Shown one piece after another: positions 1-16,344 of a stretch of 26,221 nucleotides of DNA. Position 1 is the first letter of the stretch. Each line of letters begins with the position of its first letter. The notes beneath the pieces are model-generated. The model saw nothing but the letters and a program-made list of their open reading frames with translations, did no database searches and was not told the origin of the DNA. The stretch spans positions 1 to 26,221 of the forward strand of contig CAXXGJ010000015.1 of assembly GCA_963677895.2 (NCBI GenBank), read 5' to 3'. Position numbers and translations under genes: made by a program. Origin of the DNA: Treponemataceae bacterium. GTDB lineage: Bacteria; Spirochaetota; Spirochaetia; Treponematales; Rectinemataceae.

Positions 1-554
1 TCGCAGCATGCGAGGAGCTGAAGGCAGGAAATGCAAATTTCGACCTAGGTGATGGTTATAAGGCATCATTTGTACTTCCGGACATCGGGAAGCCCTATGT
101 AGTGGAGGATGCATATACTGCGCACACAAATACCGGACTGTTTACACCCTATGGCTTTACAATATCCTCTGACGGTATCGAATTGGCATCCCTGAAAATG
201 TATGTGTATTCCAGCCCACAATTATATCCCGCACCAAAGGCCAGTACAGAGGCTTCTACAATACCTGAAGTTTTGGGTCCAAGGATTATAACACCTGAAA
301 CCATAAGCGGTGCTCTTGGATATGTTGGCTATGATCTGCAAATAGGTGCAACAGGGACGGATACAAACAATGCCATGACTGGTTTCTTCCGATGCTTCCC
401 AGGAGCGCAGAGTGAGTTGGTTATTTCTAAGGAGAGCCTGAAAGGTACAGTTGAGGTTTCTGGCGAGACAAGCGGGCTCCCTGCATCTGTACTGTCGTTG
501 CAAGTTTTCAATTCTATGGTAGACAGCATTAAGGTATCGGGACCAGGTATTTAG
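1..554 (+). CDS. Secreted hypothetical protein, 5'-truncated at the window edge (full copy at 12895-13506)
   Basis: Identical to the C-terminal part of the 203-aa ORF at 12895-13506. Confidence 0.85.
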   Translation, partial: AACEELKAGNANFDLGDGYKASFVLPDIGKPYVVEDAYTAHTNTGLFTPYGFTISSDGIELASLKMYVYSSPQLYPAPKASTEASTIPEVLGPRIITPETISGALGYVGYDLQIGATGTDTNNAMTGFFRCFPGAQSELVISKESLKGTVEVSGETSGLPASVLSLQVFNSMVDSIKVSGPGI

Positions 555-566
555 GAAGTTAGATTC

Positions 567-580
567 ATTTTCTTTTTTTT
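567..580 (+). terminator. Oligo-T archaeal-type terminator candidate
   Basis: attttctttttttt shortly after the stop codon at 554. Confidence 0.45.
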
Positions 581-909
581 GATATAAGCATCGATATAAT
601 TCGATTTTCGGACACAATCCGGGAATGATTAATGGCAAAACCAGAACCAAGAATGCTGCTCGTTTTTTTGGACGTTTGCCATCCATTTTGAAAGGATTGT
701 GGAAGAATTTGGAGGAATAGTGTGTCATAATATCACATTAGGATAGCTTCAAAGACCTCGAAAGCTCGACTTATTAGGATTTAGTGCAATCACATGCATT
801 AGCCGATATGGACCCGAAAATAGTCGAACATTTTTCGAGCAATTATAGAATGTTCAGGGGGGGCAGGCGAGCTAACCTGTTTTTGAGTTGGTATATCACG
901 AACTGATAC

Positions 910-926
910 AAAGGTTTTTCGTTAGA
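910..926 (+). promoter_or_regulatory. Conserved upstream element AAAGGTTTTTCGTTAGA (copy A)
   Basis: 41 bp before GGAGG (951-955), with ATG at 963. Near-identical copies at 1285, 1515 and 12383. Confidence 0.7.
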
Positions 927-962
927 ACCTCCAATCTTAAAAGAAGATAACGGAGGGATTTA

Positions 963-1271
963 ATGAAGAAAATAATACTTGCAGTACTCTTACTGCTATC
1001 ATTGGCCATATCATTAGATATTGTGCCAGCAATAGATGTAGGCGCGGAACATTCAGGCGCGATGTTAGGGCTTACAGATCAAAGCACCTCGACAGCTTAC
1101 ACCACACTTGGCACCTGTGATTATATCGGGAACAGCAACACGCATAAGTTCCATGTGCCGAGCTGTTCTTGGGTGCCGAAAATAAATCCCGAGCATGAGG
1201 TTTGTTTCTCAAGTGCTAGCAGTGCAATAGCTGCTGGATATGCTGCCTGCAAGAAATGCAATCCTGCCTAA
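963..1271 (+). CDS. Secreted protein with a C-terminal Ada-type metal-binding (Ada_Zn_binding-like) domain
   Basis: Signal peptide MKKIILAVLLLLSLAIS. YIGNSNTHKFHxPSC...F...AIAAGYxACKKCNP is the typical Ada metal-binding signature often found fused to thermonucleases. GGAGG RBS present. Confidence 0.85.
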   Translation: MKKIILAVLLLLSLAISLDIVPAIDVGAEHSGAMLGLTDQSTSTAYTTLGTCDYIGNSNTHKFHVPSCSWVPKINPEHEVCFSSASSAIAAGYAACKKCNPA

Positions 1272-1284
1272 TGGTCAATCACCC

Positions 1285-1301
1285 AAACCTTTTTCGTTAG
1301 A
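1285..1301 (+). promoter_or_regulatory. Conserved upstream element AAACCTTTTTCGTTAGA (copy B), with no intact downstream gene
   Basis: Followed by GGAGG at 1323-1327 but only very short ORFs. About 55 bp of similarity to the leader at 12383-12445. Confidence 0.6.
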
Positions 1302-1514
1302 TCTTCTATAATGAATTCTACAGGAGGAATTATCAAACGAATATGACCCATACAAAGACACGTCAGTATTTATAACTTCGACGTTCCCCTGGGATGAAGG
1401 CACCCTTTCTCTGCTCAAGACGATTCACATTGAGAAGATCAATTCCACTTCTTAGCTTCGCTTGTGGGATTTCCTTTTTTCACCAAAGAGTGCAATGAGT
1501 TCTTTTAAGGTCCA

Positions 1515-1531
1515 AAAGGTTTTTCGTTGGA
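1515..1531 (+). promoter_or_regulatory. Conserved upstream element AAAGGTTTTTCGTTGGA (copy C)
   Basis: 37 bp before GGAGG (1552-1556), with ATG at 1563. Confidence 0.7.
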
Positions 1532-1562
1532 TACATCTATGTCAAATGCATGGAGGAATTGC

Positions 1563-2066
1563 ATGAGAATAATGATTGGCGTCGTAATATTGGTAGCTTC
1601 ATTGATATCATTAATGGCAACTGCATCTGCAGTTGAAATTGTTAGAGTAGATAATTTCAATTTATCAGTAGATTTCGGCGAATCACATGCTGAAATATCG
1701 CCCACATCGCCTTATATGGTAAACGAGTTAAACATTGCATCGGTTAAATTCTCCGCAGACAACGCAACAGGAATTATTGCCATAGGCAAAACGCCTGGTT
1801 CAGAGCCTCATTCCATTTTAGTAAGCAACTGCAAAAGAGTTCTAGAGCTAATAATGAAGCAAACCAATGTCAATGTGGACGTAACGCCATACGAAGATGG
1901 GTTCATTGGGACAGGTGAAGACCTAGCTACCGGGTCACCGACGTATGGAATCTTAAAGCCAGATGATGCAGAGTTTGGAAGAGCATCTCGCGTATTAATT
2001 GCGATAGCAACTTCAAAGGACGAAAGAAAGATTAAAAGCATAATAGCGAGCGTAAAATCAGCATAA
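1563..2066 (+). CDS. Secreted hypothetical protein (start revised to ATG 1563)
   Basis: GGAGG RBS 6 nt before ATG 1563. Signal peptide MRIMIGVVILVASLISLMATASA ends in an AxA cleavage site. Confidence 0.85.
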   Translation: MRIMIGVVILVASLISLMATASAVEIVRVDNFNLSVDFGESHAEISPTSPYMVNELNIASVKFSADNATGIIAIGKTPGSEPHSILVSNCKRVLELIMKQTNVNVDVTPYEDGFIGTGEDLATGSPTYGILKPDDAEFGRASRVLIAIATSKDERKIKSIIASVKSA

Positions 2067-2156
2067 TTCAGTGAATTTCGTCTTTGCGGGTTTTATAATA
2101 TTCCTTTTTTGTACAACTAACGCGATTTATTTCTAAAGTATCTAATCATAACCTAA

Positions 2157-2440
2157 TTCCACAAAACCGATATGCGTAAAATCCCATAGCGCACAATGGT
2201 GATTATCGAGCTAGAAACATATTCATAACTCGGTGTGAATTAAATTCAAGGCCAGAGCATATCGGTTTTGCACCAAGATTATAACTTTCGGTTTTGGCTA
2301 CTGGTAGCGATTGCAAAAGACCTTTCTTTTTTCGATCATTTCATAGTTTATGTGCATGGAGAGCCGGTTTTGACCATGTTTCCCCGCGAATGGATTACAT
2401 CAAATCAGTATAAGCTTTATTGATGCTGTTTTGTGGAATG
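2157..2440. repeat. Intergenic cluster of (C)GGTTTTG / GTTTTGTGGAA repeats in both orientations
   Basis: caaaaccgatatgc (2162-2175) and gcatatcggttttg (~2258-2271) form a perfect 14-bp inverted repeat. ttccacaaaac (2157) is inverted relative to gttttgtggaa (~2428). Extra cggttttg copies at ~2289 and ~2365. Confidence 0.55.
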
Positions 2441-2656
2441 TGTCACTGAAATTAGTACAAGGCAACAGTATTAACTTTATTAAGAAAGTTCTTAGAATAA
2501 TACTTATACAGGCAATTTTCCTATCACGATTTAATCAATCATGTTGTGGATATATTTATCTTGGTTTAGGTTTCCCATAAGGTAGCAAGAGGTAGTCCTA
2601 TTAATATGAAGCTAAAATGCTAATAGCATCAAACCGAAAAAGGGGAGAATAAATAT

Positions 2657-3067
2657 ATGAATGATTTTATGATAGGGGATAATCTTAGAGATATAATTAT
2701 CGGTGTAATCGGATCTCTTATCGGAGCAGCTTTTGTATTCTTTGCATCACGCGGCTGGAAATTTACGAGCGACTTACGCGAAAAAGCTAAACTAGAGCTC
2801 ATGCAAGAAAAATCCGAGTGGAACAATGGAGGGCAAATTGGTCAGCAAAGAATTACTAATAAATACTTATTTGAAATATTAAAATTTATCCTATTTGGTA
2901 GTTTATTTTCAAGTATTCCATTAATAATATCAGCTTTCTCTATAATGGATGGAATGATAACATCTACCAGTCCCGTTATTTTTTACGTATTATCTGGCTT
3001 TGCCTCACTAGCTTCCTTTTATTGGGGGTTAGGGAAAGTAATCAGATACAGAAATTTATCCTCCTAA
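2657..3067 (+). CDS. Hypothetical membrane protein (about 3 TM helices), AT-rich cargo gene
   Basis: 136-aa ORF with hydrophobic segments IIIGVIGSLIGAAFVFFA, FILFGSLFSSIPLIISAF and VIFYVLSGFASLASFYWGL. Confidence 0.8.
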   Translation: MNDFMIGDNLRDIIIGVIGSLIGAAFVFFASRGWKFTSDLREKAKLELMQEKSEWNNGGQIGQQRITNKYLFEILKFILFGSLFSSIPLIISAFSIMDGMITSTSPVIFYVLSGFASLASFYWGLGKVIRYRNLSS

Positions 3068-3363
3068 TAATTTTGTGGCAAAAATACCGCAAACTGATAA
3101 GCAGCAACCACATTACAAGATCAAGGGTGGCAACAATTTTAACCGCTAGACGCTGATTACCTCGCGCCAATTGGCACGAAAAATCATCATTCTGTAATGC
3201 GATAGGCTCCGAAAAAAAATAAGACCTTCGGCCTAGATTGCCGCGCGCCCTTGGCCGGTAGCGGCGGCGATCAGAGCAACAGGCCCGGCACGTCGGGCTA
3301 ATCGCTACATCCTCTCCTATGTGGCCGAGAGATATAGGCCATTTGGACCAGTAAAGCTAAACC

Positions 3364-3390
3364 TGATCACTACATTATCTTATGTGATCA
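3364..3390. promoter_or_regulatory. Operator-like inverted repeat TGATCAC-N13-GTGATCA immediately upstream of the RHH/coiled-coil gene
   Basis: tgatcactacattatcttatgtgatca, ending 2 nt before ATG 3393. Confidence 0.6.
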
Positions 3391-3825
3391 CTATGAGGAT
3401 TTATGCTGAGGCTACTGATCAGTTGCTAAAAGAGATCAACCAAGCGGTCAAAGAAAAAGGAATTGGTAAGACCCAAATAGTTCTTGAAGCCCTTGATCAG
3501 TACCTACATGGTAGTGATCATGGAGAGCTTGCAAAAGCTAGGTCCGAGCTGGAAAAGACCAAAGGAGACCTAGATAAAAGTTGGTTCGAGATCACTAGGT
3601 TAAGGTCTGAGATCACAGCTATTAAAGCTGATTTAGAAAAGATAAGATCACTAGCTGAAAGGCTCCAGCAAGAGAGTGATCTACTAAAGAAAACTGCTGA
3701 TCAAGCACACATAGACCTTGAATTGTCGCGACGTGATCACGAGCATGCACTAGACACCATACGACAAGACCGGGAACAGATCAGTATGTTATCTGCATTG
3801 ACTCATCAGTTGACAGAGAAGATCA
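3365..3825. repeat. Dispersed GATC(A) repeat array (14 sites) overlapping the RHH/coiled-coil gene
   Basis: GATC at 3365, 3386, 3417, 3434, 3495, 3516, 3590, 3611, 3646, 3678, 3699, 3735, 3779 and 3821. 13 of the 14 are GATCA. Confidence 0.8.
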
Positions 3826-3890
3826 CGCCTGCGCTGCCACCAAGCCAGGAAGAGGCCAAAAAGAAAGGATGGTGGCAGTTCTGGAGATGA
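3393..3890 (+). CDS. RHH-like DNA-binding domain + coiled coil + aromatic C-terminal tail (KKKGWWQFWR); candidate partition/stability protein
   Basis: From ATG 3393, MRIYAEATDQLLKEINQAVKEKGIGKTQIVLEALDQYL fits a strand-helix-helix pattern. The middle is heptad-rich and the tail is amphipathic. Confidence 0.8.
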   Translation: MRIYAEATDQLLKEINQAVKEKGIGKTQIVLEALDQYLHGSDHGELAKARSELEKTKGDLDKSWFEITRLRSEITAIKADLEKIRSLAERLQQESDLLKKTADQAHIDLELSRRDHEHALDTIRQDREQISMLSALTHQLTEKITPALPPSQEEAKKKGWWQFWR

Positions 3891-3897
3891 AGAGTTG

Positions 3898-4425
3898 ATG
3901 GAACTTAGTACTTTGGCTGATATTGGAGTAGCTCTTGCGACCTTATTTTTGGCTATCATAACGAGCTTAACTATTAGAGAAACGCGTCTGCAGCAAAAAA
4001 AAGATCGTTTACATAAAGAAATGACGTTATTAGTTGGGCAATTACATATCCACATGGACAGCGATTTATTATTTGGTACAACGGAACTTAATAATCGACC
4101 TAACCGAGATAGAACCACAGATCAAGACTGGAAAATGTATTTTAATTTTTGGGATAATATTGAAATTAATATGTATTTAGCGGACAGGGATTTATTAAGA
4201 GCGCTGAAAAACCACATTGACGCAAAAAATGATTATTGGAATTGGGCGAGAAGCAATGGACTCTTAATATTTAACGCTAATAACGAGTACAAACAGAAAA
4301 TGCAGTGGATCAAGACTACAAGAAATGCTTTGGACAAGGAAACCAATAGAAGATATGAAAACCTAAAGAAAGAAATCGATGAACTTGAACAAAGGCCTTG
4401 GTATCATTTCTGGAAATGCCACTAA
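3898..4425 (+). CDS. Hypothetical protein with an N-terminal TM anchor and C-terminal PWYHFWK tail
   Basis: ~175-aa ORF with TM segment IGVALATLFLAIITSLTI. AT-rich. Starts 7 nt after the upstream stop. Confidence 0.8.
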   Translation: MELSTLADIGVALATLFLAIITSLTIRETRLQQKKDRLHKEMTLLVGQLHIHMDSDLLFGTTELNNRPNRDRTTDQDWKMYFNFWDNIEINMYLADRDLLRALKNHIDAKNDYWNWARSNGLLIFNANNEYKQKMQWIKTTRNALDKETNRRYENLKKEIDELEQRPWYHFWKCH

Positions 4426-4694
4426 GAGAAGGCCCCTCGCAGTCTCCGCGTGATCGAATCCTTTGGATACTCAACAACAGCGGCGGCAAGATGGACAGGA
4501 GCACCTTAAGGCGGCGCATGGGGACAGGCCATGAAAGGTCACAGTTTTATAGTTTTAAGACACATATATTGATAGGTGAAATATTCTATGCTGTGGAACC
4601 TTGTAAAGAAGATTATAAAAATACACCTTCTCGTGATTGGCTTGATAGCTCTTCTGTGTTTCTTGAAAAAGAAGCACCATTGCTGCTGCCATAA
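4416..4694 (+). pseudogene. Probably disrupted small wHTH gene (MPLREGPSQSPRDRILWILNNSGGKMDRSTLRRRMG...)
   Basis: ATG 4416 overlaps the end of the previous gene. The first ~36 codons are GC-rich and look like HTH helices 1-2. The sequence then switches abruptly to AT-rich, apparently unrelated DNA at ~4530. Confidence 0.5.
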
Positions 4695-4717
4695 TGATAA
4701 AGAATAGACAACCATTT

Positions 4718-4770
4718 TTACCGCCTAGGAAGAAGCAAAGAAAAAGAGCTGGTGGCGGTTCTGGAAATGA
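4718..4770 (+). pseudogene. Remnant 3' end of a paralogue of the 3393-3890 gene (LPP/EEAKKKSWWRFWK*)
   Basis: ttaccgcctag-gaagaagcaaagaaaaagagctggtggcggttctggaaatga aligns with ctgccaccaagccaggaagaggccaaaaagaaaggatggtggcagttctggagatga, with a 4-nt deletion. Confidence 0.75.
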
Positions 4771-4775
4771 GGAGA

Positions 4776-4982
4776 TCACCCTTCCAGCCAGAACTCCTGT
4801 GGCCACAGCCCGCCCTCTTCACAGCAGGTTTCTTGAGAGTGGACTTCCTCAAAGCGATTATGGATCATCTCATCAACCTCCGACAGCCTGACCCCAAACA
4901 CCTCAGCCAGGATCTCCCTTGCCGCTTCCAGCTCCATAGCCTTTTGACTCATTGCCTTATGTGGCCTGAAGACTCCTGCCAT
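4776..4982 (-). CDS. Small acidic hypothetical protein (MELEAAREILAEVFG...GLWPQEF)
   Basis: 68-aa helical ORF convergent on the WWRFWK remnant. It resembles small proteins I recall from Methanothrix elements (unverified). AT-rich promoter-like sequence lies upstream at ~4990-5010. Confidence 0.6.
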   Translation of the reverse strand: MAGVFRPHKAMSQKAMELEAAREILAEVFGVRLSEVDEMIHNRFEEVHSQETCCEEGGLWPQEFWLEG

Positions 4983-5082
4983 GAAGAGCTTATTCTACGT
5001 ATAAGGTTAAGTAATTTGGCCGGAAAACAATATCAATAGGCCATTTTTTCATAAAGGGAAAGCTTGAATATCATACAAAGAG

Positions 5083-5547
5083 ATGAATGAGACCATGAGA
5101 CGAACCAGAGCCTTCTTTATGCTGTCTATGCTGCTCCTGATCACCCTGGCAGCAGGCGCGCCGGATGAGGCCATGGGAAGAGTTTCAAAGGTTGTGGATG
5201 GTGACACCTTCGACGTTACCCTAGATAGCCATGATAGCCGGATCTCCGAGGACATCATCAGGGTCCGGCTTGCAGACATTGACACGCCGGAAGTTCGCGG
5301 GCCGAAAGCATGCGAAGCTGGGAAGAAGGCATCAGCCTACACGAAAAAATGGCTTTTAGGTAGAACAGTATCCTTGGACCTTGATGATAAGACCGGCAAG
5401 GTAAAAAACTATGGAATATGGCGATGGGTGGCGGTTTGCTATCTGCAGGATGGCCGGAACTTCAATAAGATGCTTGTGGATGCCGGCCACGCCGTGATAA
5501 AAGACTTCAAAAATAATGAGTTCGATCCTGGGAGCTGGTGGAGCTAA
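5083..5547 (+). CDS. Secreted thermonuclease (staphylococcal nuclease/SNase family)
   Basis: Signal peptide plus motifs VVDGDT, VRLADIDTPE and NKMLVDAGHA. The real start may be ATG 5095. Confidence 0.92.
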   Translation: MNETMRRTRAFFMLSMLLLITLAAGAPDEAMGRVSKVVDGDTFDVTLDSHDSRISEDIIRVRLADIDTPEVRGPKACEAGKKASAYTKKWLLGRTVSLDLDDKTGKVKNYGIWRWVAVCYLQDGRNFNKMLVDAGHAVIKDFKNNEFDPGSWWS

Positions 5548-5792
5548 GAATAGATCGCTCTGGCGTCCTTCAAGGTCTCCATGGCTCGCTCTCCTGTGGG
5601 TGATGTCTTATAGATAATCCCATCCTCCTGGATGGCCTCGATAAGCCCCTTTTCTTGCAGTAAAGTGAGATATGGCCCTACGGTCTTAAAATTCAATCCA
5701 GCTTGATAAACAACCCTGGTCTTATTAGCACCTTCGCGACATGTATCGAGAATTTGGACTATGATCTGATCTTTTTCCCTTTTCGGAAGCAT
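5544..5792 (-). CDS. Archaeal winged-helix transcriptional regulator (HTH_45-like)
   Basis: Pattern R...II..IL..C..GANKTRVVYQAGLNFKT...YL..L...GLI.....Y.TSP.G. The stop overlaps the thermonuclease stop. Confidence 0.88.
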   Translation of the reverse strand: MLPKREKDQIIVQILDTCREGANKTRVVYQAGLNFKTVGPYLTLLQEKGLIEAIQEDGIIYKTSPTGERAMETLKDARAIYS

Positions 5793-5800
5793 AACATAGG

Positions 5801-5880
5801 TAAGTATTTTATATACTTATTAATGTTTCCTTCTTATGTAACCGGGCCACATAAGATAATATCGAAGCGTTACATAAGAA
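5801..5880 (-). promoter_or_regulatory. Promoter/operator of the wHTH gene: TATA box inside a 7-bp IR, plus an upstream 12-bp IR
   Basis: taagtat-tttat-atactta (5801-5819) contains TATATAAA on the minus strand. ttcttatgtaac (5831-5842) and gttacataagaa (5869-5880) form a perfect IR. Confidence 0.6.
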
Positions 5881-6017
5881 CGGGCCGATTGTGGCTTTAT
5901 ACATGCAAAATTATAATTTCTGTAATGCCTTATAATCAACGATCTCAGGCAAAGATGATAGTTAAGGACTGGCTAGAAATCGCTTGAAGGTCGATTATTG
6001 ATTGCTGTCCTGTGGCA

Positions 6018-6263
6018 TTAAAGGCTATGTCCGAGATAAAGCGCAAAATGTCCTATGATGAGAAGATCCGATGCATAGACAAGAACCCTGACCACAAGAG
6101 GATCTTCATTTAGCGTATGTTCGCAGAAGGATATCACCCACCGAGAGATGATTATCATGAGAATTACCACTAGCATGGTAAGGCAGAAGATAACGAAATG
6201 TGCGATTAGGCTTACCATGTAGGGCTCGACAATCAACCAAACCTCTTGGTGAACGTTGAACAT
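6018..6263 (-). CDS. Small membrane protein (2 TM helices)
   Basis: 81-aa hydrophobic ORF. On the minus strand GAGGTGA lies directly before the ATG, and AAAACTTATAA is ~25-35 nt upstream. Confidence 0.75.
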   Translation of the reverse strand: MFNVHQEVWLIVEPYMVSLIAHFVIFCLTMLVVILMIIISRWVISFCEHTLNEDPLVVRVLVYASDLLIIGHFALYLGHSL

Positions 6264-6674
6264 TCACCTCAGATATATCTGTCATATAGTTATAAGTTTT
6301 TTTTCTTTAGATTGTTTTTATATATACTGTTTATTTTTTAATATATATTATAACTAAGAGAAACGCTATGCACTAAACTAATAACAGTTGTTTAAAAAAA
6401 TTTTTTTCTACCTGAGAATCCTTAGACTTCGATTGTGCGCGAAGCTCTATAAGTTGCCTAGATTTAGTTCATTTGTTGATTCGTTTACATGCCATGTAAA
6501 TTATCAATCAATTTCTGACCTATTACTTCGATGTCTCTTCATATCGGTTCATTATTATTCTCCTATCCACTAAGCACTATAGAAATATCAGTAAGTCACC
6601 TGATATTTTAGGATCGGTGCAAGGAAGTTTGTGTCTCTTATCCTCTATTCTCTAAAATTAATTGATCGTTGACG

Positions 6675-7199
6675 TCAATGAATTTGTACCTTCAAGCGAA
6701 GCACTTTCTCCCTGGCATCGCCAGGCCTAGCATGAAGTTCATAGCGGCGCATGTCCAGCTTTACCAGAAGGCGTGTCATTGTGGCCCGGTCAATGCCTAG
6801 AATGTGTTCCAGTTGCTTCAATGTGGTAGGCCCGCGGCTCTTCAGCACTTCATCTATTTTCGCGATTCTGGCAACGGTCTTCTCTCCTGATGGTGTCGGA
6901 GCCTTGACCAGTTTGGCGATTATGTTATCTATCTCGGAGATGGCATCAAAAGAATCGTCGGTTCGTGCTCCCTGCAGACGCACCTCGCGGCGCAAGGCGG
7001 CTATTTCCTGCCTATCCTGGTCTCTCTCTTCTCGGAGCCCCATAACCTCATCCTGCAAAGGCTGGAAGGCTTCTTGGATGAGGCCCCGGAGCTGTGATAA
7101 GGAGAGTGTGATAGATGGTTCTGAAGGCGATACGGGAAAATCGGCTTGCATCGCTGTGGACGCAAAGCTATTTATCTTAGCTAAGGCTATTTCTGACAT
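6675..7199 (-). CDS. Coiled-coil protein with a C-terminal MarR-like winged helix
   Basis: Heptads LQDEVMGLREERDQDRQEIAALRREV. C-terminal IDEVLKSRGPTTLKQLEHILGIDRATMTRLLVKL...DAREKVLRL. AGGTGA RBS upstream. Confidence 0.85.
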   Translation of the reverse strand: MSEIALAKINSFASTAMQADFPVSPSEPSITLSLSQLRGLIQEAFQPLQDEVMGLREERDQDRQEIAALRREVRLQGARTDDSFDAISEIDNIIAKLVKAPTPSGEKTVARIAKIDEVLKSRGPTTLKQLEHILGIDRATMTRLLVKLDMRRYELHARPGDAREKVLRLKVQIH

Positions 7200-7229
7200 A
7201 AGGTATTCACCTGCACGGTGTTTTCTCCT

Positions 7230-7252
7230 GTCAGGAGTTCGCAGCTCCTGAC
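7230..7252 (-). other. Stem-loop in the 5' leader of the MarR-like gene
   Basis: gtcaggagt-tcgca-gctcctgac: 8 perfect base pairs, extendable outward (tcc/gga). Confidence 0.5.
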
Positions 7253-7413
7253 CGGAAACCAGTTTTTTATTACTACTATTATTTTGGCAAAGATTATTTC
7301 AAATCATTTTAAAGCTATGCCTAGATAAGCTCATATTCGGTCAGTGACAACCCGCAAGCTGGCATTGTGTTTCACCAAAACCGTGCCAAAGGGCGGGGGT
7401 AATCCCTGTCCTT

Positions 7414-7563
7414 CTAATTACTTGCATGATGCTCTAAGTATTCTTTAATCGCATCCGCGATCACGCCAGATTGTGAGCCTCTAAGTGTTCCTTTTGTCTT
7501 CACGATATACTCTTTCAGCCTCTGGTTAATCTCGGGGGTAATATCAGCACTGACTTTAGGCAT
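7414..7563 (-). CDS. Ribbon-helix-helix (CopG/Arc-like) protein, 49 aa; not in the ORF track
   Basis: Translates to MPKVSADITPEINQRLKEYIVKTKGTLRGSQSGVIADAIKEYLEHHASN. Canonical AAAGGTTATATAG box ~23-35 nt upstream on the minus strand. Confidence 0.85.
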   Translation of the reverse strand: MPKVSADITPEINQRLKEYIVKTKGTLRGSQSGVIADAIKEYLEHHASN

Positions 7564-7585
7564 GTTAGAACATAAGATCTTAGCT

Positions 7586-7628
7586 CTATATAACCTTTAC
7601 TTCTTTAATAGACTAAACTCTTAAATAC
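7586..7628. promoter_or_regulatory. Back-to-back archaeal promoters for the RHH (minus) and SWIM (plus) genes
   Basis: Minus strand AAAGGTTATATAG (7586-7598). Plus strand AAACTCTTAAATAC (7615-7628), followed by a GGTGA RBS before ATG 7661. Confidence 0.7.
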
Positions 7629-7660
7629 TAAAAAGACTATGTTCCTATCGGTGAAACGCA

Positions 7661-8020
7661 ATGTCTGGAAAAGTATTAGTTCAAGTTGAAACCCCAAAAA
7701 CGCAATCCATCGATGCTGTGAAAACGCTATTGGCCTACGTTGGCCGCGCAAGTGATCCGCTACCCTCGGACGTGAGCCTTGATAATGGCCGTGTGGTGTT
7801 GATCCTGTCCAATAAAAAGGACTGTTTTTATGTGGCCACACCGCGAGCATGTTCTTGCCCGGCGCATACCTGGCATCCGGGCCAATCATGCAAGCATCAG
7901 AGAAAGTTCTTTCCACAATCGGAGGCGGCTAAAACCGTCTCTGCTAACGAACCTCTGATTAAGCGAGGCGGATTTAGGCCGGTGGACACCATGCCAGGAG
8001 AGGAGAAGGTGGCGGCATAG
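7661..8020 (+). CDS. SWIM zinc-finger protein
   Basis: Y.AT...CSCPA.......CKH matches the SWIM CxC-xn-CxH motif. Confidence 0.85.
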   Translation: MSGKVLVQVETPKTQSIDAVKTLLAYVGRASDPLPSDVSLDNGRVVLILSNKKDCFYVATPRACSCPAHTWHPGQSCKHQRKFFPQSEAAKTVSANEPLIKRGGFRPVDTMPGEEKVAA

Positions 8021-8077
8021 ATGGCCATCACTTCTTTTTGGCGGTGTCGGAGCTGCCCGTGGGTGTGGCTGGATTGA
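8021..8077 (+). CDS. Possible 18-aa CxxC micro-ORF (MAITSFWRCRSCPWVWLD)
   Basis: The ATG directly follows the SWIM stop, with an AAGGTGG RBS-like sequence upstream. Confidence 0.3.
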   Translation: MAITSFWRCRSCPWVWLD

Positions 8078-8512
8078 GCGGTACTAAAAAGGAATAATCG
8101 CAGCGATTTTTCAACCGCCGCGCACGGCCTGAGTTCTCTAGCGAGTTATTCTTCAGTTTGCCGCGCACACACTCTTTCAACAATGTATTTAAATTGTACG
8201 CATAATTTGACTGTTAATTCCATTCTGTAGCGTGTTATGAAGTCGATTAGACGATAGATAGCGATTTTGGAAATATTCTTCATCATGATGGTGTAAAAAG
8301 AATGCTAGTAGATATTACATATATGATACATAGATAGTATGTATGTATGTAGGTAGGTATGTAATGTGAGTAAAATATTTGCACTAAAATCGCATTATGC
8401 AAAATTGACGGTCGACCGTTTAATTCAAACAGTCGGTTAACATTTAACTTGACACTTTATGTCAAATTTAACACGTAATTATTCTGACTACGGTTCCGTA
8501 TTCATTGAAAAA

Positions 8513-8573
8513 TGTGCCACTTTGGCGCATGTGCACCACTTTGGTGCACTTATTTGGGGGTTAAGCTTAAATC
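8513..8573 (+). promoter_or_regulatory. Tandem palindromic operators and TATA box of the rep operon
   Basis: tgtgccactttggcgca (8513-8529) and the perfect IR gtgcacca-ctt-tggtgcac (8531-8549). AAGCTTAAAT at ~8563-8572. AGGTGA RBS before ATG 8606. Confidence 0.65.
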
Positions 8574-8605
8574 GTCTCATGACATTCCCTTCCCTAGGTG
8601 ATTCT

Positions 8606-8752
8606 ATGAGAATGGAAGAAATTAATGCAAAAATTCCGATAGAGTCGAGGTTAGCGATTGAAAAATTCGCTATACAGCGAGAAATTTCGCTCGGAGCAGC
8701 CACCAGACACTTTCTGAAAGTTGGAATTCAGGCGGCGGGCGTGGTTGGTTGA
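8606..8752 (+). CDS. Ribbon-helix-helix (CopG-like) copy-number regulator candidate, 48 aa (start revised to 8606)
   Basis: MRMEEINAKIPIESRLAIEKFAIQREISLGAATRHFLKVGI fits the RHH pattern. It is the first gene upstream of rep. Confidence 0.75.
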   Translation: MRMEEINAKIPIESRLAIEKFAIQREISLGAATRHFLKVGIQAAGVVG

Positions 8753-8889
8753 TACCGAAAATAGAAAATGTGCCCGGAAAGGGTGTTAGCGCACCCTCGC
8801 CGCGCGTTGCTGTCGCCTCTGTCTACCTCCGAGAGGTCTACCTATGAGTAAGGCTCTTCTCAAATTTAACACTTCCCACAGAGGATACT

Positions 8890-9159
8890 ATGCCACATGC
8901 TAGCGATAGCAAGACCTCTGTCATTCCCGACGGTCTCAGAACCGAGGGTAATGAGGGCGAAAAGCATCAACGTGTGCATATCCCACGCGATAAAGCCAAA
9001 TCTCTGACATGGTTGCCCTGGAAGTCCAATAACCAAGAACACGGCTTGATACGCCACAAGTTCAGCGCTAACGGCACCATCACTGAAATGGGAGATAGAG
9101 CGCCGGTTATTCGCAGGAAACCCAAAAGTGTCTCTTCAAGGCAGTGGGAGGCGGTCTAA
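8890..9159 (+). CDS. Basic hypothetical protein in the rep operon
   Basis: 89-aa ORF with a GAGGA RBS. Its 3' end contains the GGAGG for the next ORF. Confidence 0.55.
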   Translation: MPHASDSKTSVIPDGLRTEGNEGEKHQRVHIPRDKAKSLTWLPWKSNNQEHGLIRHKFSANGTITEMGDRAPVIRRKPKSVSSRQWEAV

Positions 9160-9160
9160 A

Positions 9161-9289
9161 ATGATCGCCACCACAAAACAATCTAAACTAATATTTAAAA
9201 AGATCTCCAAAAAGCGATCACAGGAGCCTTGCAAGCTATTCACGTTCTTGAAAATTATTTGGAAGACATTGAGGAGCGAGAATAGATGA
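9161..9289 (+). CDS. 42-aa basic ORF translationally coupled to rep; not in the ORF track
   Basis: MIATTKQSKLIFKKISKKRSQEPCKLFTFLKIIWKTLRSENR. GGAGG upstream. The TGA overlaps the rep ATG (ATGA). Confidence 0.55.
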   Translation: MIATTKQSKLIFKKISKKRSQEPCKLFTFLKIIWKTLRSENR

Positions 9290-12123
9290 CCAATGTTCCC
9301 GAATGCTTCAACACTCCAAATGCTGGATTCGTGCTCCTCCCGACAGGGATTAAATTCCCACCCATCGAGAAGGAATGGCAGAAGAAGCCCCATACTTTCG
9401 CAGAGGCGCAGGCTCACCGGGGAAACGTGGGTGTATTGGCCGGCAAAGCGGACATCGGCCTTGATAAAGACAACCCCGCAGCTTTTGAAGGTCTGGAGCT
9501 GCCCACCACGACCAGGTGGGAAACCCGCCCAGGCCGGTATGGGATGAGATTCAAGCTCTCCGACAACGTGACAGAGGCCCTGGCTACCATCGGCAAGAAG
9601 GCTGATTTGGCACAGATATATCTCTACCGCGATGGGAAGCAATGTGGAGAGATAAAACTTCAGAGATCTTATCAGATCATCCCACCGTCATTTAAACCAC
9701 TTGAAGATGGCACGCGCGCAGATTATAAGATGCTTGACTCCAGCCCACCGGCTACTATCACCCTGGCGCATCTCCTGGCCGATCTTCAGGCAATCGGAAT
9801 AACCTTCTCTTCCAAGCTGGAAGCCAACGCCGCCAAACTGGAAGACATCGGCAAGAAGGCCCACCACATACGAATAGAGAGCGATGAAACCCGAACCCGG
9901 CGCTATGCAGAGGCGGCACTCCGCGATGAAGTATTGACCCTGGCAGGCACCCCCGAAGGCAACAGGAATAGGCAACTTAATGATTCGGCTTTCAATCTTG
10001 GTCAATTCGTAGCTGTTGGACTGCTAAGTGAGGATGAGGTAATCTCCGAGCTGACGAGAGCGGCAGAAAATACCGAGCTGCCCACTGAGGAGATCCGAAA
10101 AACTATCATTTCCGGGCTGGAAGCTGGAAAGCAGCACCCCAGGGAGATACCAACCGCAGAGGAAACCCCGACACCTGAAAACCTAAACAATCTCTTTGCC
10201 AACGATCCCAAGGGGGCCATCAAAAGCCCTGCATTTCTCCGAGCACTGGCAATGCTCAAAGAATCTGACCCCTTTGAGTACGAACTGCTGAAAGAAAAGA
10301 TAGCATCTAATAAAACGCTGAAAGGCGTTTCCAAGAAAACAATAGATGTGATGGTCGAAAGACACGCACCGAAAGCAGAAGAAGCGGATGAGGCCGGGCC
10401 TGAGATACCCGAGGATATACTCACTGAAGCGAACCAAGTACTCGACGAGGGCAGAGGGTTTGAGTATGCTTATGAGGTCTGGCAGAAGCGACACCACGGC
10501 GACGGGAATCTAGGAAAGGGGTTATTCCTATCCATTGGCGGCCAGTCCTGCCTATCATCAAAAGGGGTACATATCCATGCTTGCGGTCCGAGAGGATCCG
10601 GAAAGAGCGATGGTGCCGAGAAGGGGGCCGAGGAGATCCCTGCAGAATATCTCTTGGTAGGCAGTGCAAGTCCAAAAGCATTGTACTACCTGGGCGCAAG
10701 GTTGCCACCCGGTGCCGTGGTCTATCTGGATGATATCGGCTGGAATGACCAGGCCGCCCAGATGTTCAAGACATGCACCACATTTTACAAGGAAGGTGCA
10801 ACCCATACAGTAGTGGTTGATCAGGAGATCAGGCAGTTCAAGACTGCACCCAGGATTATCTTTTGGCTGACCACGGCAGACGACCAGACAGATGAACAGA
10901 TCAGGGACCGGCTGCTAAGGATCGATACTACAGAAGACCCTAAGCACACGAAGGCCGTGATAGATTTTATCTTCCAGCAAAGGAAGAGCGGCGCGGCTTC
11001 CTTCGACCCCAGGGAGCTGGAGGTTTGCCGGGCGATTATTCATCTTCTGAAGCAGGTATTCATTGACGTTGTTATTCCCTTCTCCGACAAGATCAGGTTT
11101 GAAGGAGATCCGAGAGGAGCAACCATATTCGCGGATCTAGTATCCTCATTTGCCGTCTGGAGACATCGCATAAGGGCGCATGACAGCAACGGTGCCATAA
11201 TCGCCTGTTACGAGGACTACAAGGACGCAGAGACCTTCTTCAATGCCATAAAAGGCCATGGTGACACCAAATACACCCCAAGAGAGCTTAAGGTTCTGCA
11301 AGCCATCAAAGACCTACATGGAGTGGCTACTCGTGAGATGGTAAGCAAAAAGACTGGACTATCCAAAGGCGATTTGTCAGATATCTTGAATGGGCGTAGT
11401 CGTGATGGTCAAGCCAAATATGGATTATTCCACAAGTGCGCTGCCTTAACTGAGGATGAGGAAGGGACATCAATCCAGATCGAAGACGTAAAGAAAACCC
11501 GAACCAGTGTTAAGAAAAAGATACTACGATTGCCGCCAGACTACGACACCTTATCAGCTTATGGCAAGGCCGTATATCTTGCAGACGAAACCACAATCAA
11601 GCGGACTTGTTCGGCAAGTTCGGAGCAGTTCGGCACGAGTTCGGAAATCAAAAACAAGTTCGGCAAAGATCTAGTTCGGTTGTTCGTAGAATATAATATA
11701 ATAAGAGAGAAGAGAACTAACGTACACAAACTCTCTCCTTGTGTGGATGGAATAAAATTAAAAAAAATATCTTTTTCACGCCAGGAGCAAAAAATCAACG
11801 AACTGCCGAACTTTGTGCCGCTAGATAATGGTTTGCCTTTACGAACCGATGTCGAACAATGTCGAACCACGCCGAACCAGTCATTAGATAGCGATTTACC
11901 AACAATGTCAAAGAGAGATATGCCTATTCCAACCGGGCCATCCGGTGAGATCAGAATAGCGGCAATGTCCGAGTATGGCATAGCTGGATGGGTCAATCCT
12001 TCGAAGGTTGCCGCCAAACTCCATATCGAGCTGGAAGAGGTCGTAACCTGGCTGGAAGCAAATTATCAGCCCTACACCCTGGCGGATGGCTCAACCGGAT
12101 ATAAGCAGAAAGCGACAGCATGA
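9286..12123 (+). CDS. rep: Replication protein: N-terminal Prim-Pol (AEP-like) + PriCT-like helical domain + AAA+/MCM-like P-loop helicase + wHTH
   Basis: N-terminal K.P..K.WQ, GNVGV, GLDKD and Y.I.PPS motifs. EGNRNRQLNDSAF...EIRKTIISG is PriCT-like. Walker A GPRGSGKS (10585-10608), Walker B VVYLDD (10717-10734), Arg-finger-like QIRDR, and HTH ATREMVSKKTGLSKGDLSDIL. Confidence 0.85.
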   Translation: MTNVPECFNTPNAGFVLLPTGIKFPPIEKEWQKKPHTFAEAQAHRGNVGVLAGKADIGLDKDNPAAFEGLELPTTTRWETRPGRYGMRFKLSDNVTEALATIGKKADLAQIYLYRDGKQCGEIKLQRSYQIIPPSFKPLEDGTRADYKMLDSSPPATITLAHLLADLQAIGITFSSKLEANAAKLEDIGKKAHHIRIESDETRTRRYAEAALRDEVLTLAGTPEGNRNRQLNDSAFNLGQFVAVGLLSEDEVISELTRAAENTELPTEEIRKTIISGLEAGKQHPREIPTAEETPTPENLNNLFANDPKGAIKSPAFLRALAMLKESDPFEYELLKEKIASNKTLKGVSKKTIDVMVERHAPKAEEADEAGPEIPEDILTEANQVLDEGRGFEYAYEVWQKRHHGDGNLGKGLFLSIGGQSCLSSKGVHIHACGPRGSGKSDGAEKGAEEIPAEYLLVGSASPKALYYLGARLPPGAVVYLDDIGWNDQAAQMFKTCTTFYKEGATHTVVVDQEIRQFKTAPRIIFWLTTADDQTDEQIRDRLLRIDTTEDPKHTKAVIDFIFQQRKSGAASFDPRELEVCRAIIHLLKQVFIDVVIPFSDKIRFEGDPRGATIFADLVSSFAVWRHRIRAHDSNGAIIACYEDYKDAETFFNAIKGHGDTKYTPRELKVLQAIKDLHGVATREMVSKKTGLSKGDLSDILNGRSRDGQAKYGLFHKCAALTEDEEGTSIQIEDVKKTRTSVKKKILRLPPDYDTLSAYGKAVYLADETTIKRTCSASSEQFGTSSEIKNKFGKDLVRLFVEYNIIREKRTNVHKLSPCVDGIKLKKISFSRQEQKINELPNFVPLDNGLPLRTDVEQCRTTPNQSLDSDLPTMSKRDMPIPTGPSGEIRIAAMSEYGIAGWVNPSKVAAKLHIELEEVVTWLEANYQPYTLADGSTGYKQKATA
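11609..11877. repeat. Candidate replication origin inside rep: 7 GTTCG(G) iterons, an AT-rich core, then 6 inverted CGAAC iterons
   Basis: GTTCG at 11609, 11618, 11628, 11639, 11658, 11674 and 11682. CGAAC at 11799, 11807, 11842, 11853, 11863 and 11873. Between them lie aatataatataataagagagaagag and ataaaattaaaaaaaatatcttttt. Confidence 0.75.
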
Positions 12124-12382
12124 TCCTTCTATTCAGGAAGCTTGAAGCGTCCTATCGCGTCCACTCCCCCCAAAAAAAATCCCAAACCCATATCAGCAGC
12201 GGAAATACAATAATCCGAAACGTCCGTGATCCATCCTGATATTAGGAAAAAGAGAAGCAAGAGACGCAAATGGTTACAGAAAAACAGGACGTTTTGGACT
12301 TCCTAAACCTCCAATATGGCATTTCGATAGGTATGCAGAGCAAAGCCGGCGGTTTGCATCATTGCATCAGAGCGTGGAACCC

Positions 12383-12399
12383 AAAGGCTTTTCGTTAGA
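12383..12399 (+). promoter_or_regulatory. Conserved upstream element AAAGGCTTTTCGTTAGA (copy D)
   Basis: 44 bp before GGAGG (12427-12431), which precedes the two-gene secreted-protein operon. Confidence 0.7.
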
Positions 12400-12460
12400 T
12401 CCTTTAATTCAATTATGAAATATGTAGGAGGTATTATCAACGAATGCACGAATAACGGTC

Positions 12461-12889
12461 TTGGCCGCCCTTTTGATAGTCGGTACATTATTTACACCCG
12501 CAACCGCACTTACCGATGATGAAAAAACAATTGTTGAGGTGGTGGGAACCAAAACACTTATGGACATCGATTCAATCACATTTGCTCTTGTAGAAATCGA
12601 CTATGGGAATACTATGAACATGTGGTTTGTCCCCAAAAGCTCAGACGAAGACACCCTTATAAATTCGATAGGTAGCACTGTAGGTGTTTACGTTGGTGCT
12701 TGCAAGTCGTATCCAGATATATCAGACCTAAATCTTATGGTAGGAACGAAATCCACCGTGGCCGGTAAGATGTATTGCAAAAGAGCGTGGGCTGATGAAG
12801 TCAGTCAAAACACAGATGGTTCCTATAATACAAATGAGATGGGACTAGTAGCACTAAGAGTTCTCGGAACCTTCAAAAAGACATCTTAA
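12461..12889 (+). CDS. Secreted hypothetical protein (start codon uncertain)
   Basis: Signal-peptide-like (RITV)LAALLIVGTLFTPATA, followed by a ~125-aa globular domain. Confidence 0.8.
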   Translation: MAALLIVGTLFTPATALTDDEKTIVEVVGTKTLMDIDSITFALVEIDYGNTMNMWFVPKSSDEDTLINSIGSTVGVYVGACKSYPDISDLNLMVGTKSTVAGKMYCKRAWADEVSQNTDGSYNTNEMGLVALRVLGTFKKTS

Positions 12890-12894
12890 CTACG

Positions 12895-13506
12895 GTGAGA
12901 TTAATGAAACAATGGATTATGATATTAATGCTATTTGCCGTTAGCATCTCGATCGCAGCATGCGAGGAGCTGAAGGCAGGAAATGCAAATTTCGACCTAG
13001 GTGATGGTTATAAGGCATCATTTGTACTTCCGGACATCGGGAAGCCCTATGTAGTGGAGGATGCATATACTGCGCACACAAATACCGGACTGTTTACACC
13101 CTATGGCTTTACAATATCCTCTGACGGTATCGAATTGGCATCCCTGAAAATGTATGTGTATTCCAGCCCACAATTATATCCCGCACCAAAGGCCAGTACA
13201 GAGGCTTCTACAATACCTGAAGTTTTGGGTCCAAGGATTATAACACCTGAAACCATAAGCGGTGCTCTTGGATATGTTGGCTATGATCTGCAAATAGGTG
13301 CAACAGGGACGGATACAAACAATGCCATGACTGGTTTCTTCCGATGCTTCCCAGGAGCGCAGAGTGAGTTGGTTATTTCTAAGGAGAGCCTGAAAGGTAC
13401 AGTTGAGGTTTCTGGCGAGACAAGCGGGCTCCCTGCATCTGTACTGTCGTTGCAAGTTTTCAATTCTATGGTAGACAGCATTAAGGTATCGGGACCAGGT
13501 ATTTAG
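12895..13506 (+). CDS. Secreted (possibly lipo-) hypothetical protein
   Basis: MKQWIMILMLFAVSISIAAC signal. GGTGA upstream of ATG 12904. Begins 5 nt after the previous stop and spans the copy 1/2 junction. Confidence 0.85.
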   Translation: MRLMKQWIMILMLFAVSISIAACEELKAGNANFDLGDGYKASFVLPDIGKPYVVEDAYTAHTNTGLFTPYGFTISSDGIELASLKMYVYSSPQLYPAPKASTEASTIPEVLGPRIITPETISGALGYVGYDLQIGATGTDTNNAMTGFFRCFPGAQSELVISKESLKGTVEVSGETSGLPASVLSLQVFNSMVDSIKVSGPGI

Positions 13507-13914
13507 GAAGTTAGATTCATTTTCTTTTTTTTGATATAAGCATCGATATAATTCGATTTTCGGACACAATCCGGGAATGATTAATGGCAAAACCAGAACC
13601 AAGAATGCTGCTCGTTTTTTTGGACGTTTGCCATCCATTTTGAAAGGATTGTGGAAGAATTTGGAGGAATAGTGTGTCATAATATCACATTAGGATAGCT
13701 TCAAAGACCTCGAAAGCTCGACTTATTAGGATTTAGTGCAATCACATGCATTAGCCGATATGGACCCGAAAATAGTCGAACATTTTTCGAGCAATTATAG
13801 AATGTTCAGGGGGGGCAGGCGAGCTAACCTGTTTTTGAGTTGGTATATCACGAACTGATACAAAGGTTTTTCGTTAGAACCTCCAATCTTAAAAGAAGAT
13901 AACGGAGGGATTTA

Positions 13915-14223
13915 ATGAAGAAAATAATACTTGCAGTACTCTTACTGCTATCATTGGCCATATCATTAGATATTGTGCCAGCAATAGATGTAGGCGCGGA
14001 ACATTCAGGCGCGATGTTAGGGCTTACAGATCAAAGCACCTCGACAGCTTACACCACACTTGGCACCTGTGATTATATCGGGAACAGCAACACGCATAAG
14101 TTCCATGTGCCGAGCTGTTCTTGGGTGCCGAAAATAAATCCCGAGCATGAGGTTTGTTTCTCAAGTGCTAGCAGTGCAATAGCTGCTGGATATGCTGCCT
14201 GCAAGAAATGCAATCCTGCCTAA
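13915..14223 (+). CDS. Secreted Ada metal-binding domain protein (copy 2)
   Basis: Identical to 963-1271. Confidence 0.85.
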   Translation: MKKIILAVLLLLSLAISLDIVPAIDVGAEHSGAMLGLTDQSTSTAYTTLGTCDYIGNSNTHKFHVPSCSWVPKINPEHEVCFSSASSAIAAGYAACKKCNPA

Positions 14224-16019: not shown

Positions 16020-16344
16020 TAATTTTGTGGCAAAAATACCGCAAACTGATAAGCAGCAACCACATTACAAGATCAAGGGTGGCAACAATTTTAACCGCTA
16101 GACGCTGATTACCTCGCGCCAATTGGCACGAAAAATCATCATTCTGTAATGCGATAGGCTCCGAAAAAAAATAAGACCTTCGGCCTAGATTGCCGCGCGC
16201 CCTTGGCCGGTAGCGGCGGCGATCAGAGCAACAGGCCCGGCACGTCGGGCTAATCGCTACATCCTCTCCTATGTGGCCGAGAGATATAGGCCATTTGGAC
16301 CAGTAAAGCTAAACCTGATCACTACATTATCTTATGTGATCACT

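Follow-up and report, generated by a model that had tools for sequence, protein, structure and literature searches.

Known Single-Protein and RHH-Based Partition Systems

RocS from Streptococcus pneumoniae and Par of pSK1 from Staphylococcus aureus appear, by architecture, to be the closest analogues of the protein described here. Both consist of a DNA-binding head, a coiled coil, and a C-terminal hydrophobic/basic tail, and neither has a cognate ATPase (PMC11500499, PMC10135026). Membrane binding by RocS requires oligomerization and is multivalent (PMC11500499). The present protein has the same overall plan. However, the head of RocS and pSK1 Par is a MerR-type wHTH, whereas the N-terminus here matches ribbon-helix-helix (RHH)/CopG. 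In addition, the present family belongs to archaeal elements, has no DUF536 match, and has its sites spread across the coding sequence, with a motif that differs from lineage to lineage. With the wHTH and DUF536 tests failing, the protein is an analogue by architecture and not a member of these systems.

The StbA/stbS system of R388 combines single-protein, NTPase-free segregation with autorepression and has repeats with an 11-bp cycle; the centromere repeats of both StbA and ParR are helically phased (10.1101/2022.04.29.490116). StbA differs from the present protein in its PadR-like HTH, in the location of its repeats in promoters, and in the nucleoid rather than membrane association that is proposed in that text (10.1101/2022.04.29.490116). 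How single-protein systems such as pSK1 Par, StbA, and RocS work is called unresolved in these reports (PMC11500499, 10.1101/2022.04.29.490116).

ParZ from Borrelia burgdorferi is a centromere-binding protein that is reported to bind within its own gene (PMC9712426). It is a precedent for own-gene binding, which is represented here by a sequence signature. In contrast to the present protein, ParZ is chromosomal and recruits ParA via an N-terminal peptide, and the account of its own-gene binding specifies no motif (PMC9712426).

The RHH centromere binders of type Ib and II systems (omega2, ParG, and ParR, as well as the archaeal SegB and HpaB) resemble the present protein in combining an RHH fold with short-repeat arrays over their own promoter. 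The omega2 heptad, (T/A)ATCAC(T/A) (PMC4627068), resembles the GATCAC found here. Omega2 (PMC4627068) and HpaB (PMC13722703) are RHH centromere binders of ParA-type systems. In contrast to the present system, these proteins work with a ParA or ParM NTPase and have their arrays in promoter DNA; the texts compared mention no long coiled coil ending in a Trp tail for them. The locus examined here has the RHH domain and the promoter repeat array of this group and lacks an adjacent ParA or ParM operon gene. The KfrA family is absent among the matches listed in the Pfam and family scans of the window and the family proteins. Taken together, the comparisons of sequence suggest a new form of single-protein, membrane-tail partition with a lineage-specific, centromere-like array inside its own gene.

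The Plasmid and Its Host

The window, i.e., the whole stretch of 26,221 nucleotides analyzed here, comprises two copies of a 12,952-bp unit and the short start of a third. One circular-plasmid unit occupies positions 1–12952 and is followed by the second copy, and read assemblies of two studies agree with it: their runs each give the unit as a single 12,982-base contig, with the joint 12952-to-1 included and with zero differences. Because the joint was recovered as one contig in the runs of two studies, the unit is a free circular plasmid. One of these runs may be the source sample. As the circle is doubled in the assembly, a second identical array and gene are found at 16316–16842 (plus strand). 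Small indels in the second unit (~24930–25000) cut the replicase ORF to 920 aa and probably result from misassembly of the duplicated circle.

The GC content of the plasmid is 0.44 versus 0.54–0.59 in the large contigs of the source genome (G000), the 16S genes of which give a full-length match of 1544 bits to the bacterial model, scored on the bacterial model alone. The gene is present in 0/68 other genomes of the family of G000. The genome loci with a relative number 25, of which 20 are labeled Methanotrichaceae, Methanothrix, or Methanosaeta, one Methanocellaceae, one Methanosarcinales, and three belong to bacterial bins. Among 72,556 annotated plasmids, the sole match is pGP6 of Methanothrix soehngenii (42% identity); the pGP6 member, MCON_RS14915, is annotated as “hypothetical protein,” and the strain is cultured. 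The literature covered, with most subscription journals and supplements outside its scope, yielded nothing on this family or on pGP6 partition. Most likely, the window is a Methanotrichaceae plasmid misplaced in a bacterial bin, a host assignment that draws on the labels of the relatives, pGP6, and GC content.

In runs X4 and X5, the contigs over window positions 1–14000 are fragmented and have many loose ends at GATC, as in proximity-ligation libraries. Among the matches listed, one unbranched contig of X4 (3140–3830) spans most of the array, and in X5 the depth among covered bins is lowest at 3270–4203.

The RHH/Coiled-Coil/Trp-Tail Protein

The gene (3393–3890, plus strand) encodes a 165-aa protein, and its ATG at 3393 fits the starts of the homologs. 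A GTG start at 3321 (189 aa) is disfavored, given an in-frame stop within 60 nt upstream of the start in 83/101 homologs. A single-protein search returned 126 matches, and 476 sequences have E ≤1e-10 among 8000 profile-scored candidates, although some of the weak matches may be generic coiled coils. The family set used below was reduced from 121 loci to 109 full-length genes, 101 unique genes (most of them from Methanotrichaceae elements), and 20 clusters at 62% identity.

Residues 1–40 (3393–3512, plus strand) form an RHH domain with the strand RIYAE. A 75-sequence profile matches CopG-family RHH chains with E values of 6e-5 and 0.004, Pfam RHH_1 matches 19 of the 75 members, and Foldseek places CopG at first rank (probability 0.96, E 0.2). 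Residues 41–147 (3513–3833, plus strand) are modeled by AlphaFold2 as one continuous helix, with a pLDDT of 92–98 over most of its length, and represent the coiled coil; coiled-coil families give many matches for the protein family. The other modeled helices span residues 9–22 and 26–39, and the tail is of low confidence (pLDDT 53–63). This tail, LPPSQEEAKKKGWWQFWR (3834–3890, plus strand), is a putative membrane anchor whose coding sequence is nearly devoid of motif sites. A WWxFW tail with basic residues is present in 93/101 genes; at 0.41, its hydrophobic moment is modest and ranks 49th among 155 windows. An RHH-like N-terminus followed by a long coiled coil and a KKKGWWQFWR-type tail had been proposed from the letters of the DNA, and all three parts are recovered by these profile, structure, and conservation data.

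Two C-terminal fragments give zero Pfam matches to DUF536 (PF04394) with an E threshold of 10, and this domain is not among the best 25 of the 215 families matched by the 75 members. The ESM Atlas gives DUF536 similarity for the C-terminal part at a lead-level score of 0.78. In the same atlas, Bacillota clusters pair a NikA-like RHH with DUF536 (scores of 0.84–0.86, leads only) and may be bacterial counterparts. Indel lengths in the family show no clear pattern of multiples of 7 residues.

The GATC(A) Array of the Window Gene

The array, a putative centromere, extends over 3365–3824 and harbors 14 GATC sites (3365, 3386, 3417, 3434, 3495, 3516, 3590, 3611, 3646, 3678, 3699, 3735, 3779, and 3821), 12 of which are in the coding sequence. 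The sequence-only reading had described 14 GATC, including 13 GATCA, with four pairs at a distance of 21 bp and one at 42 bp, a palindrome TGATCAC-N13-GTGATCA before the ATG, and sites in all three frames; every coordinate was verified, the 42-bp pair being 3779/3821, the palindrome lying at 3364–3390 and the frames of the coding sequence holding 6, 1, and 5 sites. The expectation of about 2 sites by chance was only partly upheld. It agrees with a base-composition null (1.85) and with the background of the element (2.25), but a null in which the protein is fixed gives 8.0, and the lower figure overstates the case because the protein itself favors GATC.

Against the synonymous shuffles within the gene, the coding sequence has 12 GATC versus 8.0 (p 0.018). 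GATCA occurs 11 times versus 4.7 in synonymous-codon shuffles, with 0/20,000 shuffles as high and a family-wise p of 0.002 over all 1024 5-mers, and TGATCA is realized at 5/5 places where the protein could encode it. The enrichment of GATCA thus survives the synonymous-codon shuffle, which had been set beforehand as the check that could refute a signal at the DNA level. The densest 500-bp segment of the plasmid is the array, with 14 GATC versus ≤8 elsewhere. Among the sites in the gene, 10/12 are conserved in 10 or more of 12 clade members, a count from which L004 is left out on account of an internal deletion. The 21-bp spacing within the window gene alone is only suggestive, with p values of 0.0003 under random placement, 0.026 under synonymous shuffles, and 0.11 given the number of sites; a 10.5-bp phasing test of the same gene gives a p of 0.157.

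The two TGATCA sites that lie 21 bp apart before the ATG (3364–3390) constitute a putative operator and the start of the array, and the proximal one overlaps what we take, from the consensus, to be the Shine–Dalgarno/ribosome-binding position. Immediately upstream, a BRE/TATA-like block (3347–3363, plus strand), degenerate here and ACCAGAAAAAATATAGC-like in most clade members, is presumably an archaeal promoter, a role that we assign from the archaeal consensus. A sigma-70 promoter scan gives 4 sites versus 3.7 expected. Because similarity among clade members ends ~60 nt before the start codon, to which upstream stretch it is confined, promoter and gene look like a portable cassette. Farther upstream, positions 3240–3300 are GC-rich with short inverted repeats that are not common to the other clade members.

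Two further claims are not supported. The second motif said to be interleaved with the array (AGACC/GGTC, CTAG) dissolves on inspection: AGACC has a family-wise p of 0.15 and 0–2 copies in 12 other clade members, and CTAG has a p of 0.31. The suggestion that GATC methylation modulates binding is not supported as a general role, given that most motif classes of the family have no GATC.

Motif Arrays Across the Family

A lineage-specific array of a 5–7-bp motif, helically spaced and conserved at silent sites, covers the gene and 100–200 bp upstream in this family, mostly on small elements without ParA. The feature is real, and the family as a whole supports it more strongly than the window does by itself. 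The lineages use about ten different motifs, including TGATCA, TGATAG, TGCACC, TGCGCC, and TGCATAA.

To avoid circularity, the top 5-mer was taken from positions −120 to −14 only and then ranked in the gene. It falls in the top 6 of 512 in 69 of the 98 genes with enough upstream DNA (29/98 fail) and, by cluster, in 15/20; with one gene per cluster, a count suited to the non-independence of related genes, 12/20 pass. The controls pass far less often, i.e., in 4/415 neighbor ORFs, 81/3241 ORFs of G000, and 3/211 charge-rich ORFs. In a stricter test, 13/20 cluster representatives reach a family-wise p of 0.05, with the 5-mer also upstream in 11 and absent there in 2. Genes of cluster 1 (e.g., L005) have a second 5-mer, CGCGA (8 versus 1.6, family-wise p <0.003), which adjoins GATC sites and is absent upstream.

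The motif density per kb is ~1–4 in the flanks, reaches 15 and then 49 in the two 100-nt bins immediately upstream of the gene, and is 20, 50, 29, 20, and 5 across the fifths of the gene, fading before the stop codon; the motif was chosen from the gene, such that the flanking values alone are independent. With a motif that is likewise partly gene-defined, the densest point is on the gene in 52/52 loci of at least 6 kb. Spacings peak at 10/11, 21, 31/32, 42, 52/53, and 63. The best-fitting period, 10.6 bp, is the same upstream and within genes, and spacings that are not a multiple of 3 have a period of 10.6–10.7. Per-gene phasing beats the synonymous null (p 0.05) in only 3/19 representatives, because the amino acid pattern already carries the phasing. 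Non-palindromic motifs occur in both orientations and in 2–3 frames.

Silent sites provide a further line of evidence. Codon-matched silent-site identity is 0.92–1.00 inside motifs versus 0.68–0.82 outside in 7/7 clusters tested, which were those large enough, with L004 and L100 left out. In most clusters, coding capacity is highest for the cluster's own 6-mer, most or all of which is used, and other motifs are seldom realized; for example, TGCACC in L010 uses 8.2 of 8.2 per 100 aa, and TGATAG in cluster 11 uses 5.0 of 7.9.

The motif tracks the type of RHH strand. GATC-core motifs occur with RIYAE, RVYAE, or RVYSD, and TGATAG with KRIYAE; TGCACC pairs with RIYAP or RVYAP, TGCGCC with RIHAP, and TTCACCG with RVYGL; TCACC pairs with RVYAV, TGCATAA with RVTVS, TGAATC with RTSVT, and ATACC with KIAVS. 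The prediction that each homolog would be enriched in its own motif, co-varying with the RHH strand, is borne out in gene and upstream DNA, though confounded with descent. In trees of 42 of the 101 proteins, motifs follow clades and deep forks are open. A strand-to-motif code is therefore suggested at most, being inseparable from descent since the motif tracks the clade; KRIYAE and LRIYAE strands are paired with different motifs.

A class-wide search gave matches in 33/392 genomes, many of them fragments, and 11 new near-full-length genes. Three genes outside the motif-defining set (pGP6, L131, and L132) carry the motif expected from their strand, at ranks 3, 3, and 1. The best 500 bp of pGP6 hold 24 GATC versus ≤6 elsewhere, with spacings of 10, 11, 20–22, and 32; the pGP6 gene itself has 17 GATC versus 12.5 expected (p 0.009), with a family-wise p of 0.058 for its 5-mer. 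L133 fails the top-1 test, and CACCG/GCACC is present in its gene and upstream.

Proposed Mechanism

On balance, the locus is best read as a one-gene plasmid partition (positioning) cassette in which promoter and coding sequence together would form the centromere, probably tethered to the membrane. The component claims differ in strength. The protein very probably binds its own array, and it is quite likely that the system works without a dedicated ATPase; the array probably serves inheritance, and the tail more likely than not binds the membrane. We infer binding, repression, membrane contact, and segregation. Points against this reading include the modest hydrophobic moment and low model confidence of the tail, the lack of a DUF536 match, the 29/98 genes that fail the upstream test, the few representatives with significant phasing of their own, and the overlap of the proximal upstream site with the Shine–Dalgarno position.

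It is hypothesized that RHH dimers bind the motif (WGATCA here) in a cooperative manner along a single face of the double helix, beginning at the promoter and continuing through the coding sequence. This coating would both repress the gene and assemble the centromere complex. The coiled coil of ~107 residues, which at the standard helix rise of 0.15 nm is ~16 nm long, would project the Trp/basic tails. As reported for RocS, the tails would bind the membrane only when clustered, which would anchor plasmid copies to the growing membrane and distribute them along it with no ATPase encoded by the plasmid. A heptad corresponds to 21 nt and two DNA turns, so a coiled coil could be written as a phased array of sites, and motif switches may let co-resident elements escape incompatibility. 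Only tentatively can the family be proposed as a previously undescribed device, namely, a 0.6-kb cassette that would be promoter, operator, centromere, and protein gene at once and would tether methanogen plasmids and plasmid-like viruses to the membrane without an NTPase or partner. This tentative proposal includes a protein that is rewritten at each change of RHH specificity, giving about ten natural protein–site pairs.

The inheritance of small archaeal plasmids without ParA is poorly known. The family would offer an archaeal RHH version of the single-protein systems, with one member on pGP6 of a cultured strain. It would also be a clear example of dual coding, with a protein sequence molded by an array for DNA binding. 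Synonymous recoding could separate the centromere from the protein, and swaps among the ~ten motif classes could yield a natural RHH recognition code. If the cassette stabilizes plasmids, its 0.6 kb and orthogonal variants could serve methanogen vectors.

Genomic Context and a Possible Partner

Neither ParA nor ParM is encoded among the 16 ORFs of the window or the 17 ORFs of pGP6, as searched with Pfam (ParM by Pfam scans only). With the closed unit in the read assemblies, this bears out the free circular plasmid without ParA on which the sequence-only reading had built. Across 100 loci (739 neighbor ORFs), a ParA-type Walker A is found in 3, at a distance of 2.2–6.7 kb, and one is Pfam-confirmed; the absence of ParA across loci is a lower bound because many loci are short fragments. 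ParA and tyrosine-integrase models match 0/15 records (14 viral and pGP6), whereas the controls match in 14/14 genomes.

The conserved backbone neighbor (6675–7199, minus strand) encodes a coiled-coil protein with a C-terminal wHTH, as judged from weak HTH matches. It is found on pGP6 and in 31/41 loci whose downstream sequence extends for 4 kb or more; overall, it occurs in 47/100 loci and 11 clusters. It is possibly a second component or partner, which counts against a one-gene reading. A 945-aa Walker-A protein (9286–12123, plus strand) resembles large ORFs of related elements and is a putative primase-helicase replicase, with zero family matches for the ORF. The other neighbors vary and include toxin–antitoxin genes, genes for terminase and portal proteins, and replicase-like ORFs of several unrelated kinds (65/70 cluster representatives were scanned for this annotation). 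Six virus-like carriers (L109, L113, L114, L118, L119, and L121), ~14–15 kb where near complete, have terminase, portal, or head-morphogenesis genes and neither integrase nor ParA; they are candidate plasmid-prophages of Methanotrichaceae.

The frequency of the wHTH neighbor raises the alternative that the array is a centromere and that the tail recruits a protein partner, i.e., a host ParA or MinD or this neighbor, rather than lipid. Such an adaptor would accord with the modest hydrophobic moment of the tail, with Borrelia ParZ, which combines own-gene binding with a requirement for ParA (PMC9712426), and with the unknown partner that the authors of RocS suspect (PMC11500499). However, the neighbor is missing in 10/41 long loci and is otherwise at a variable distance on the opposite strand, ParA is rare and distant, and the RHH begins at residue 1–3, leaving no omega-type N-terminal activating tail. 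An adaptor role is accordingly considered unlikely, and tethering to the membrane itself remains the preferred reading.

Chromosomal Copies and Possible Autoregulation

Eight copies are in a chromosomal context, L012 from the first set and L135, L138, L139, L140, L144, L149, and L156, with L10e, GatD, Fae, FmdE, pheRS, prenyltransferase, and cytochrome bd genes as neighbors; L138–L140 represent one syntenic site common to three genomes. None of the eight passes the upstream-gene test (ranks 54–512). L139 has a GATC excess (12 versus 7.3, p 0.005) that is poorly phased. In L138 and L156, the 5-mers that are enriched occur 0 times and once upstream, respectively. The intact copies retain the RHH and Trp tail and have no clear array, which counts against the partition reading. 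Because the chromosomal copies fail the motif test, the array goes with extrachromosomal life, while the protein persists without it. These copies are possibly domesticated, e.g., as a chromosome tether or anti-plasmid factor.

The persistence of the protein on chromosomes, with one upstream GATC retained in three copies, fits autoregulation as the sole function, in which the array would act as a long operator or a roadblock, holding down the level of a membrane-active protein (e.g., an exclusion factor), and would have no role in segregation. The sites also flank the putative promoter and ribosome-binding site, and RHH proteins such as CopG are repressors. In contrast, an array of ~500 bp with up to 24 sites, which has reshaped the amino acid sequence and is lost on chromosomes, goes far beyond what autorepression needs, and autoregulation alone is improbable next to the partition reading.

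Improbable Readings: Replication Control, Delivery, and Mutational By-Product

Initiators such as lambda O and RepA_N carry the origin in their own coding sequence. The phased sites could likewise be iterons of an origin inside the gene, as the helical phasing, the single array per element, and the peak of density on the gene (for the partly gene-defined motif) would allow. However, the same gene clade occurs with different replicase-like ORFs that are kilobases away (NrS-1-type, AEP-TOTE, DUF3854/DUF927, and the window type), and initiators are not known for a membrane-type tail or a long coiled coil, which makes replication control quite improbable.

Highly improbable, too, is a delivery role, in which the complex would bring the element to the membrane not for division but for transfer, loading into vesicles, or packaging into virions. 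Terminase and portal proteins are encoded by several carriers, and StbA links segregation and conjugation (10.1101/2022.04.29.490116), but the window plasmid and pGP6 are without capsid or conjugation family matches, and the virus-type carriers have no integrases, fitting plasmid-like maintenance.

Least probable of all is an unbound mutational by-product of a coiled coil grown by duplication and gene conversion of 21-nt heptads that held the motif by chance: the tallest in-gene spacing peaks are indeed 21, 42, and 63, and amino acid content explains part of the excess (8 of 12 GATC under the null), but motif and period also occur in upstream DNA and in the RHH-coding fifth, the 10/11 and 31/32 spacings shift frame, both orientations occur, silent positions are better conserved within motifs than in the same codons elsewhere, and charge-rich control genes pass in only 3/211.

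Cargo Genes

Downstream of the gene, the window retains a remnant of a homolog's 3′ end (4718–4770, plus strand), EEAKKKSWWRFWK-stop, located 3′ of a cargo ORF. Extra WWxFW-stop tails are found within 3 kb downstream, beyond cargo genes, in 15/72 loci, as if cargo had been gained by recombination at the tail-coding sequence. The cargo ORF at 3895–4425, directly 3′ of the gene, also has a tail of this kind at its end, PWYHFWKCH, which it may have acquired from a homolog. A AAAGGTTTTTCGTTAGA-type repeat is located between secreted-protein cargo genes at 910–941, 1285–1316, 1515–1546, and 12383–12414 and may be a promoter, terminator, or cassette junction.
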